Assembly: GCA_030614005.1 (NCBI GenBank)
Contig: JAUWKS010000072.1
Coordinates: forward strand, 1-15,350
Source of the DNA: Candidatus Heimdallarchaeota archaeon
GTDB taxonomy: Archaea > Asgardarchaeota > Heimdallarchaeia > JABLTI01
Reading direction: 5' to 3'
Length of the DNA stretch: 15,350 bases
A program made the position numbers and the translations under genes. Shown here piece by piece: positions 13,107 to 15,032 of the stretch (positions are counted from its first letter, which is position 1; every line of letters begins with the position of its first letter). A model generated the notes under the pieces. The model ran no database searches, was not told where the DNA came from, and worked only from the letters and a program-made list of their open reading frames with translations.

Positions 13107-15032
13107 ATGAAATCGATAGAGAAGTTATGCGAGAAATATACTATCATGAATGCACTCGACCATGGAGAAGCAAAGCTTGGTCCAGTTATGAGGATACTCA
13201 TGGCAACCCATGCGGAGCTCCGCAAAGAAGCCGATAAAGTAAAAGAAATTCTCGAACAACAAATTGATTTCATAAATTCATTATCAAAAGAAGAAATCGA
13301 AAAAATCGCTCGAGAGAAATTCCCTGAAATATTGAAAAAAGAAGAGGAACAAACCTCAACTGAGGATGTGGATTTCATTCGAACGATTATAAATGAAGAT
13401 CTTAAAACTAACAAATTTAACGGAAGAGTGCATACTCGCTTCCCTCCTGAACCAAATGGCTATTTACATATTGGTCATGCACAATCCATTAATTTGAACT
13501 ATGGTCTAGCAGCAGAATATGGTGGAAAATTCAATCTTCGATTTGATGATACAAATCCAATGACTGAAGAAATGGAGTACGTTAAAGGGATAATCGAAGA
13601 TGTAAAATGGTTAGGAGCAGATTTCGAGGATCGCTTGTTATTTGCTTCAGATTATTTCGACCAATTTTATGCTTATGCTGTCCAATTAACTGAAAAAGGA
13701 CTTGCTTATGTCGATGATCAAACTGTAGAGGAAATTAGAAAACACCGTGGAAATCTTACTGAACCAGGTAAAAATAGTCCTTTCCGGAATAGAACCATCG
13801 AAGAAAATCTCGATCTCTTTACTCGTATGAAAAAAGGTGAATTCCCAAACGGAACTAAAGTTTTGCGAGCTAAAATTGATATGAAGCATCCAAATCTAAT
13901 GATGCGAGATCCAGTCATTTATCGTATTCTCCACGAGACACATCACAACACTGGTGATAAATGGTGCATCTATCCAATGTACGATTGGGCTCACGGGTTA
14001 GAAGATTCAATAGAAGGAGTAACCCATTCAATTTGTACATTAGAGTTCGAAGTTCACAGACAGTTGTACGATTGGTTCCTAGATCAGCTCGAAGATGAAA
14101 ATGGAAAACCAATATTCCACCCAAAACAAATTGAATTTGCTCGATTGAACGTTTCTAATACTGTACTAAGCAAACGAAAAATGCTTAGATTAGTCAATGA
14201 AGGGTTTGTCAATGGTTGGGATGACCCAAGAATGTTAACAATTGTTGGATTAAAACGCAGAGGAATTACTTCTGAAACTATACGTGAATTTTGTAAAACA
14301 GTTGGTGTAACAAAAAACGACACAATTAGAGACATATCGGTTTTGAATAAATGCATTAGAGATGATCTGAACAAAAGATGCTCTAGGGTAATGAGTGTAC
14401 TAAAACCAATAAAATTAACTATCACAAACTATCCAGAGGAAAAAGTGGAAGAAATCACTGTTCCAAACCATCCAAAAAATAAAGAAATGGGTTCGAGAAA
14501 AGTGAAATTCTCAAAAACAATGTTTATCGAACGAGATGATTTCATGGAAAAACCAACTAAAGATTTCTTGAGGTTGGCACCAGGAAAAGAAGTTCGATTG
14601 AAATATGCTTACGTATTGAAATGTGATAAAGTCATTAAAGACAAAAAGTCTGGTGAGATAACTGAAATACAGTGTACTTATGATCCAAAATCAAAAAGTG
14701 GTCAAACTGGAGAAGATAAAGTGCACAGAACGATTCATTGGATTTCAGAGAAAAATGCTATTCAAGCAGAAGTAAGATTGTATAACCAACTGTTCACAAA
14801 AGTTAATCCTCTAGATACAGAAGAGGGAAAAGATTTTACGGATTACATTAATCCAAATTCTCTAGAAATTGTAAAAGCATATGTAGAACCTCATTTACAA
14901 AAAGGAAAGAAAGGTTCTAGATACCAATTTGAACGCCTAGGATTCTTCAACATAGATCCTAAGGATTCCAAAAAGAATGCTCTGGTATTCAATCAAATAA
15001 TTCCATTGCGCGACTCAAAACCAAAGAAATAG
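13107..15032 (+). CDS. glnS: Glutaminyl-tRNA synthetase: bacterial-type core with archaeal GluRS-type N-terminal domain
   Basis: DFIRTIINEDL, TRFPPEPNGYLHIGH (HIGH at 13467-13478), NLRFDDTNP, WCIYPMYD, HSICTLEF (Gln-specific Cys where GluRS has Arg), LSKRK (KMSKS equivalent), GWDDPRM, EVRLKYAY, IHWIS and QFERLGFF are collinear with E. coli-type GlnRS as recalled. Residues 1-74 match the archaeal GluRS N-terminal domain. Confidence 0.93.
   Translation: MKSIEKLCEKYTIMNALDHGEAKLGPVMRILMATHAELRKEADKVKEILEQQIDFINSLSKEEIEKIAREKFPEILKKEEEQTSTEDVDFIRTIINEDLKTNKFNGRVHTRFPPEPNGYLHIGHAQSINLNYGLAAEYGGKFNLRFDDTNPMTEEMEYVKGIIEDVKWLGADFEDRLLFASDYFDQFYAYAVQLTEKGLAYVDDQTVEEIRKHRGNLTEPGKNSPFRNRTIEENLDLFTRMKKGEFPNGTKVLRAKIDMKHPNLMMRDPVIYRILHETHHNTGDKWCIYPMYDWAHGLEDSIEGVTHSICTLEFEVHRQLYDWFLDQLEDENGKPIFHPKQIEFARLNVSNTVLSKRKMLRLVNEGFVNGWDDPRMLTIVGLKRRGITSETIREFCKTVGVTKNDTIRDISVLNKCIRDDLNKRCSRVMSVLKPIKLTITNYPEEKVEEITVPNHPKNKEMGSRKVKFSKTMFIERDDFMEKPTKDFLRLAPGKEVRLKYAYVLKCDKVIKDKKSGEITEIQCTYDPKSKSGQTGEDKVHRTIHWISEKNAIQAEVRLYNQLFTKVNPLDTEEGKDFTDYINPNSLEIVKAYVEPHLQKGKKGSRYQFERLGFFNIDPKDSKKNALVFNQIIPLRDSKPKK

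Follow-up and report, generated by a model that had tools for sequence, protein, structure and literature searches.

The gene and its product

We analyzed a window of 15,350 nucleotides of Candidatus Heimdallarchaeota DNA, and in it a gene predicted to encode a glutaminyl-tRNA synthetase (GlnRS) preceded by a domain of archaeal glutamyl-tRNA synthetase (GluRS) type. The gene spans positions 13107 to 15032 of the forward strand and, according to the list of open reading frames (ORFs) and their translations, specifies 641 residues plus a stop codon. Its first part is an N-terminal domain (NTD) of residues 1 to 78 (positions 13107 to 13340), a helical, possibly YqeY-like domain of archaeal GluRS type recognized with the model NF003169, the structure entry 3AII, and AlphaFold2 and Foldseek analyses. 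An acidic linker, EEEQTSTEDV, follows at residues 79 to 88 (positions 13341 to 13370), distinguished by low model confidence and variability among orthologues. The remainder, residues 89 to 641 (positions 13371 to 15029), is a bacterial-type GlnRS core identified by its Pfam domains, bit scores and glutamine-pocket residues, which opens with the bacterial DFIRxIIxEDL helix. The peptide quoted for the NTD in an earlier note on this DNA corresponds to residues 4 to 66, and the sequence DFIRTII starts at residue 89, nucleotide 13371, as that note had it. On the same strand, 91 nt past the GlnRS stop codon, lies a tRNA-Gln(UUG) gene with a 32-nt intron (positions 15124 to 15233), which was called by ARAGORN with introns allowed and scores 45 bits with the Rfam tRNA model.

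In the AlphaFold2 model of residues 1 to 92, residues 81 to 90 are predicted to be disordered, with a predicted local distance difference test (pLDDT) score below 50. Both the length and the sequence of the linker differ between orthologues, and its ratio of nonsynonymous to synonymous substitution rates (dN/dS) ranges from 0.1 to 1.7, which is about neutral. The gene product is a three-part protein composed of a GluRS-type NTD, an unconstrained acidic linker and a complete GlnRS.

The core has the features of a bacterial-type GlnRS

The whole protein scores 692 bits with the GlnRS model TIGR00440, whose cut-off is 425.8. Pfam identified the class I Glu/Gln catalytic domain tRNA-synt_1c at residues 108 to 422, followed by two beta-barrel anticodon-binding domains, PF03950 (_C) at residues 425 to 526 and PF20974 (_C2) at residues 542 to 617. 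Comparisons of the core with known GlnRS enzymes gave 640 bits for Escherichia coli, 489 for Deinococcus radiodurans, 438 for human and 377 for yeast, and those with GluRS enzymes 272 bits for eukaryotic GluRS, 247 for the GluRS of the same genome and 177 for that of M. thermautotrophicus. The HIGH motif and the lysine of the KMSKS motif are conserved, and the Gln-pocket residues R30, Y211, S227, C229, F233 and Q255 (E. coli numbering) are all identical to those of E. coli. Heimdall GluRS carries V, R and I/F at pocket positions 227, 229 and 255. A four-residue insertion in the acceptor “unpairing loop” is common to the core and bacteria; neither GluRS nor the eukaryote-type row of the alignment has it. 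With every checked Gln-pocket residue present, the protein is, as judged from its sequence, a class Ib glutaminyl-tRNA synthetase.

The core is 55 to 65% identical to bacterial GlnRS (E. coli GlnS, 1QTQ and 1GTS; P. aeruginosa, 5BNZ; TIGR00440), with which it shares its domains, its Gln-pocket residues, the N-terminal DFIR helix and the acceptor unpairing loop. In contrast with these enzymes, the window protein has an 88-residue N-terminal extension and an archaeal host. It also exceeds the cut-off of NF011291, the model for the GlnRS/YqeY fusion of Deinococcus, which accounts for the name given by NCBI to its relatives. Only profile positions 7 to 556 of 769 were matched, and membership in that fusion family was rejected because the C-terminal YqeY domain (profile positions 557 to 769) is absent, the protein ending 24 residues past its last Pfam domain. 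We similarly rejected membership in the eukaryotic GlnRS group: there was no Pfam match to the eukaryotic appendage families PF04558 and PF04557 in the window protein or in 64 aligned NTDs, and in the tree described below the core falls in a clade of bacteria plus Heimdallarchaeia (97/97), apart from the 11 eukaryotic sequences.

The N-terminal domain is of archaeal GluRS type

Residues 1 to 95 alone match the archaeal GluRS models NF003169 (positions 3 to 87, E value of 8.3e-15) and TIGR00463 (E value of 2e-8), and the NTD stretch matches residues 3 to 79 of the M. thermautotrophicus GluRS (PDB 3AII; E value of 3.8e-8). AlphaFold2 was run on residues 1 to 92 with an alignment of 64 NTDs and yielded a confident model of five helices (pLDDT of 87.5). 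All of the best 30 Foldseek matches to this model in Swiss-Prot were N termini of archaeal GluRS proteins (approximately residues 1 to 90), from Crenarchaeota to halophiles and methanogens, with TM scores normalized by the query of 0.71 to 0.85; this comparison with reviewed archaeal GluRS sets predicted structures against one another on both sides. A Foldseek search of the PDB gave no match to the NTD, the domain being disordered in the sole GluRS crystal. Pfam detected nothing in residues 1 to 107 of the window protein, nor, at an E value of 1 or less, in the 64 aligned NTDs. The counterpart in the nondiscriminating GluRS of M. thermautotrophicus, residues 1 to 85, has been named the YQEY domain and described as disordered (PMC2978374).

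The window NTD thus resembles that of archaeal GluRS (3AII; NF003169/TIGR00463) in sequence, in predicted fold, in its position before the Rossmann domain and in its flexible linker, and differs in that it heads a GlnRS instead of a GluRS. The matches to NF003169, 3AII and TIGR00440, together with those between folds, bear out the observation of the earlier note that an archaeal GluRS-type NTD is joined in frame to a bacterial-type GlnRS.

A profile built from the GlnRS NTDs gave 549 matches among 1.84 billion representative proteins. In each of the four longer matches that were checked with Pfam, the NTD precedes a GluRS/GlnRS catalytic domain; two of the four are incomplete proteins. A homologue search limited to residues 1 to 88 recovered nothing beyond the window protein and two near copies, a consequence of the short query and the great size of the database. 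In one metagenomic protein of GluRS type (P0159, 793 residues), N-terminal zinc ribbons come first and the NTD is internal, at residues 220 to 285, before the catalytic domain.

The dN/dS values of 0.05 to 0.28 for the NTD and 0.05 to 0.07 for the core indicate that the NTD evolves under purifying selection across two families. Between the window and a relative of the same genus (locus L038), synonymous divergence was 0.20 in the NTD versus 1.22 in the core. The low NTD value would be consistent with the 5′ part of the gene having recombined recently; given only 78 codons, it may be noise.

The fusion is real and conserved

The window genome is a metagenome-assembled genome (MAG), a draft of 126 contigs with an estimated contamination of 3.4%, so that a misassembled or misbinned contig might have fused the start of an archaeal gene to a bacterial glnS. 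This explanation is almost certainly wrong, and we rejected it because in four public runs belonging to two studies there are contigs that span the NTD-core junction with no insertion or deletion, and two single-contig genomes carry the fusion. No RNA run was listed among the public runs in which the sequence occurs. It is also at odds with the intron-bearing archaeal tRNA gene 91 nt downstream. Furthermore, approximately 55 clusters of full-length orthologues (approximately 640 residues, 60 to 90% identity), which come from Heimdall MAGs of several sources and bear the record names Heimdallarchaeota, Heimdallarchaeaceae or Asgard, keep the architecture, the reading frame and the position of the start codon.

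We scanned 399 Asgard genomes for GlnRS and found it above the cut-off in 40, all in three families of the window's class, here called f1 (the window's own family; 9 of 11 genomes), f3 (20 of 30) and f6 (12 of 22). It was absent from the four other Heimdall families and from the 300-odd other Asgard genomes of the scan. The NTD was present in all 20 GlnRS loci fetched from f1 and f3, two single-contig genomes included, and the GlnRS of f6 is without it. The NTD is missing from all 78 bacterial GlnRS loci fetched, both within the ORF and over the preceding 300 nt, and from all the GlnRS ORFs on viral contigs. The earlier note had maintained that bacterial GlnRS lacks this domain and that the in-frame fusion speaks against contamination; the former holds for the loci sampled, and the latter is supported. 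The conserved orthologue clusters, the 20 of 20 loci, the junction-spanning contigs and the purifying selection show that the fusion is real and maintained by selection.

According to a 2022 review (PMC9499178), no archaeon has a GlnRS, the reason given being that archaeal tRNA-Gln is incompatible with the enzyme. A 2024 preprint reports GlnRS beside cox genes in Hodarchaeales and Kariarchaeaceae and does not comment on its architecture. No description of the NTD-GlnRS fusion was found in the searchable literature.

Probable origins of the core and of the N-terminal domain

The core tree was built in IQ-TREE (LG+C20 PMSF, careful search) with Heimdall GluRS as the outgroup and comprised 11 true eukaryotic GlnRS, three giant-virus GlnRS, 33 bacterial rows and both Heimdall groups. 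The eukaryotes form one clade (99/95), whose sister consists of bacteria plus Heimdallarchaeia (97/97). The NTD-bearing enzymes also form one clade (100/100), which lies four nodes within the bacteria, with supports from 82/79 to 93/88, next to records naming Omnitrophota, Ignavibacteriota and Bacteroidota. The f6 enzymes and one sequence labeled Odinarchaeota are placed apart from it (84/87). Bacterial monophyly was recovered in 0 of 200 bootstrap trees. The GlnRS branches between the Heimdall families are several times shorter than the GluRS branches between the same families.

The reading that we favor, and hold to be reasonably probable, is that a bacterial-type core of bacterial descent and an NTD from a Heimdallarchaeial GluRS were joined, the NTD serving as a tRNA-affinity arm of an enzyme that works beside the GatDE route. 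The core (residues 89 to 641) would most likely have been acquired by Heimdallarchaeia from bacteria, and the NTD (residues 1 to 78) would have been copied from a Heimdallarchaeial GluRS gene, its domain type heading every archaeal GluRS. Their fusion through the flexible acidic linker would date from an ancestor shared by two Heimdall families. We infer this direction of transfer because GlnRS is found in dozens of bacterial phyla versus three families of one archaeal class, and because of the short branches and the shared bacterial-only insertions. Import of the core from bacteria is the best-fitting and most parsimonious reading, favored but not proven.

The donor of the NTD was sought in a tree of 101 NTDs, whose 78 columns limit its resolution. 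In this tree, 18 of the 20 GlnRS NTDs cluster with the NTDs of one f6 GluRS lineage (98/89), inside the diversity of archaeal GluRS NTDs, and the GluRS NTDs of f1 and f3 fall elsewhere. The window NTD is 25 to 40% identical to Heimdall GluRS NTDs, and 40% identical to that of the GluRS in its own genome (contig C9, positions 94938 to 96731).

Several of these results weigh against the favored reading or narrow it. In the approximately unbiased (AU) test on the set with eukaryotes, constraining the bacteria to be monophyletic, with Heimdallarchaeia outside, costs 30.6 log-likelihood units and is not rejected (p = 0.18). In an earlier set without true eukaryotes, the same constraint was not rejected either (p = 0.72) and gave a better likelihood than the free search. 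A single clade of NTD-bearing and NTD-less Heimdall GlnRS is likewise not rejected (AU p = 0.82), so that the NTD may have been gained once or lost once; the number of GlnRS acquisitions may be one or two. The backbone within the clade of bacteria and Heimdallarchaeia is weakly supported. As for the NTD, its identities to GluRS NTDs (approximately 30%) give no timing, since a domain that had co-diverged with the core would show the same level. Its grouping also suggests that the donor was not the window genome's own family but a Heimdall GluRS of f6 type.

The earlier note had called the core imported and the NTD a host GluRS domain. For the core, the maximum likelihood (ML) tree nests it in the bacteria and no bootstrap tree has monophyletic bacteria, while the AU test does not reject Heimdall GlnRS as sister to all bacterial GlnRS. 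For the NTD, the Heimdallarchaeial GluRS type is supported, and the host's own GluRS as its source is not, given the grouping with f6 GluRS NTDs and the 40% identity to the GluRS NTD of the same genome.

The same data bear on an alternative that we consider improbable, in which nothing was grafted. GlnRS would have arisen from a duplicated archaeal-type GluRS in the stem of Heimdallarchaeia and eukaryotes, the NTD being a relic that was never lost. The NTD-bearing Heimdall enzyme would be the ancestral form, and bacterial GlnRS would derive from a Heimdall-type enzyme minus its NTD rather than from a eukaryotic one. Family f6 would have received or kept an NTD-less version, and eukaryotes would have elaborated the homologous domain into their two-part appendage. 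The AU tests allow Heimdall GlnRS outside monophyletic bacteria and a single Heimdall clade, as this scenario would have it, but the ML tree and all 200 bootstrap trees put both Heimdall clades among the bacteria. The confinement of GlnRS to exactly three families of one class, with Heimdallarchaeota and Heimdallarchaeaceae as the closest named relatives of the window protein, speaks for this alternative, and that class has been reported to comprise the closest archaeal relatives of eukaryotes (preprint 10.1101/2024.07.04.601786). On the other hand, an ancestral gene sits poorly with the absence of GlnRS from the four other Heimdall families and the 300-odd other Asgard genomes, and with GlnRS branches among the Heimdall families that are several times shorter than those of GluRS. 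The core is far nearer to bacteria than to eukaryotes (640 versus 438 bits; 55 to 65% versus approximately 40% identity) and has the bacterial-only DFIR helix and unpairing-loop insertion. Regarding the NTD itself, its identity to GluRS NTDs (approximately 30%) is not above what co-divergence would produce. Its model superposes in a VIA scan on the second subdomain (approximately residues 119 to 184) of the GlnRS appendages of human (4YE6, Z score of 6.8) and yeast (3TL4, Z score of 5.9), values in the noise range for helical models. However, the GlnRS NTDs join one Heimdall GluRS lineage instead of branching outside all of them, in keeping with the graft that we favor.

Three other lines of evidence on these origins were discarded. 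In quick trees, starred branches separated the two Heimdall clades, a result that proved not robust in the AU tests and in the careful trees. As a rare genomic change, the length of the loop at E. coli residues 470 to 497 was considered and proved too variable, with 28 residues in the NTD clade, as in most bacteria, and 21 to 25 in f6. Dating the fusion by regressing NTD identity on core identity was uninformative, as NTD identities saturate near 28 to 30%.

The f6 genomes have two types of GluRS, which score 132 to 154 bits (L039 to L047) and 241 to 262 bits (L052, L053, L058, L060 and L063) with the GlnRS core. Only the latter type has an NTD near that of GlnRS.

The discriminator base of tRNA-Gln and the putative role of the N-terminal domain

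In most Heimdall GlnRS loci, those with and those without the NTD, tRNA-Gln genes adjoin the 3′ end of the GlnRS gene (loci L009 to L038). They share its strand in the NTD clade; in f6 they are convergent with it and comprise both isoacceptors. The tRNA-Gln(UUG) of the window, the presumed substrate, has A1-U72, A73 and an encoded CCA. The first base pair is the archaeal A1-U72 in all Heimdall tRNA-Gln compared. At the discriminator position, the archaeal state is A73 and the bacterial state is G73 (PMC9499178). G73 is found in all 18 tRNA-Gln genes beside the NTD-less f6 enzymes, and A73 in all eight UUG tRNA-Gln genes beside NTD-bearing enzymes. All three tRNA-Gln genes of the window genome have A73, and so do six of six in the GlnRS-less families f4, f5 and f7. 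In this archaeal class, the one closest to eukaryotes, GlnRS is a resident enzyme of two kinds: one has the NTD and lies beside A73 tRNAs, and the other has no NTD and lies beside G73 tRNAs.

E. coli GlnRS uses G73 as an identity element, and bacterial tRNA-Gln has U1-A72 and G73, unlike the presumed substrate of the window enzyme. According to the favored reading, the tethered NTD would act in cis as an extra tRNA-binding arm and would raise the affinity for an archaeal-type tRNA-Gln (A1-U72, A73) that is without the G73 relied on by bacterial GlnRS. The enzyme would charge the tRNA-Gln(UUG) encoded directly downstream. The A73/G73 contrast and the precedent of Deinococcus, taken together, suggest that the NTD provides binding energy for a tRNA devoid of the bacterial discriminator, and that in f6 the tRNA was changed instead; we infer this from a single phylogenetic contrast.

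In D. radiodurans GlnRS (2HZ7; NF011291), as in the window protein, a bacterial-type core carries a domain on a flexible tether, which is of YqeY/GatB-tail type in Deinococcus and may be so in the window protein. The appendage is C-terminal there and has approximately 215 residues, whereas that of the window is N-terminal, has 78 residues and is of GluRS origin. In Deinococcus, the KM for tRNA-Gln is 24- to 100-fold lower with the YqeY domain, which acts in cis only (PMC1865053). Eukaryotic GlnRS (yeast Gln4, 3TL4; human QARS, 4YE6) shows the same order of helical appendage, linker and GlnRS core, with an appendage of two subdomains and approximately 200 residues. The appended domains of eukaryotic GlnRS and of GatB bind tRNA. 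Our proposal takes the Deinococcus YqeY domain and the eukaryotic appendage to work in the same manner as the NTD.

The case for this role has counterweights of its own. The CUG tRNA-Gln near NTD-bearing enzymes has A73 in one locus and G73 in two, and the A73/G73 contrast is thin, amounting to two lineages and one comparison. The relationship of the NTD to YqeY was searched for directly. Pfam gave no match (E value of 1 or less) of the YqeY/GatB-tail families PF02637 and PF09424 to the NTD or to the 64 aligned NTDs. VIA-align superposed the NTD model on YqeY structures 8XJG (Z score of 6.2; root mean square deviation [rmsd] of 1.6 Å over 46 residues) and 1NG6 (Z score of 5.9; rmsd of 1.5 Å over 47 residues), both in the noise range for helical models. 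With hhalign, the NTD profile aligned to the tail (residues 570 to 607) of the GatE of the same genome with a probability of 0.5%. By these tests, the link between NTD and YqeY is weak and no more than suggestive.

Two further ideas of the earlier note concern this role. That the enzyme was adapted to archaeal tRNA finds circumstantial support in the discriminator contrast between loci with and without the NTD and remains conjectural. Convergence on the eukaryotic layout is apparent in the parallel order of appendage, linker and core, of which Deinococcus provides a mirror image. The archaeal GluRS NTD has itself been called YqeY-type (PMC2978374); if that is right, the resemblance to the eukaryotic appendage may reflect shared ancestry of the domain type instead of pure convergence.

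The chimera could also be as described and its NTD serve another purpose, such as docking of a partner (GatDE, GluRS, another synthetase or EF1A), regulation or solubility, or be a near-neutral passenger. We judge this unlikely, albeit worth keeping in view. There is room for such roles because no measurement bears on what this domain does in archaeal GluRS, and the one crystal structure available shows it disordered (PMC2978374); the f6 enzymes, moreover, manage without an NTD. Interplay with the indirect pathway is conceivable, since GlnRS-bearing genomes retain GatDE, of which the window genome has two copies. Purifying selection on the NTD in two families argues against neutrality, however, and binding of tRNA by the related appended domain of Deinococcus GlnRS (PMC1865053) favors the tRNA-affinity arm, as does the correspondence between NTD presence and the tRNA discriminator base.

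If the proposed mechanism is true, the two Heimdall forms would represent two natural answers to one compatibility problem, reached through the enzyme in one case and through the tRNA in the other. Such forms would then offer a ready-made system for studying the naturalization of a synthetase and its tRNA after transfer and for engineering orthogonal pairs. The chimera may show how a lineage said to lack GlnRS fitted the enzyme to its own glutamine tRNA. It would also be the third independent YqeY-type module on GlnRS, after those of Deinococcus and eukaryotes, which bears on the repeated recruitment by the direct pathway of tRNA-recognition hardware of the indirect pathway. The origin of GlnRS, in the eukaryotic stem or in the Heimdall lineage, becomes testable with these sequences.

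The indirect pathway and other tRNA-like genes

GatE is kept in 11 of 11 f1, 27 of 30 f3 and 20 of 22 f6 genomes, and the window genome has two GatD-GatE pairs (C81, positions 30778 to 34190, and C74, positions 9123 to 12481). The indirect GluRS/GatDE pathway has not been displaced by GlnRS, and the enzyme would work alongside this retained route rather than replace it. Retention of GatDE, in two copies, also tells against the favored reading insofar as the share of the predicted enzyme in Gln-tRNA synthesis may be large or small. The second GatE of the window genome is divergent (approximately 430 versus 640 bits) and recurs through the genus. The GatE of f3, a GlnRS-bearing family, is divergent as well, with 375 to 410 bits versus 560 to 640 bits in GlnRS-less families.

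ARAGORN called a candidate tRNA-Pyl(CUA), possibly spurious, on another contig of the window genome (C71, positions 90626 to 90718). In three f3 loci (L025, positions 1168 to 1242; L031, positions 1132 to 1206; L035, positions 1165 to 1239), there is a tRNA-like gene that ARAGORN could not assign, with an apparent 6-nt anticodon loop. Its acceptor is tRNA-Gln-like (AGCCCUG...A73-CCA), and in the two loci where both genes were called it lies approximately 100 nt further downstream than tRNA-Gln(UUG).

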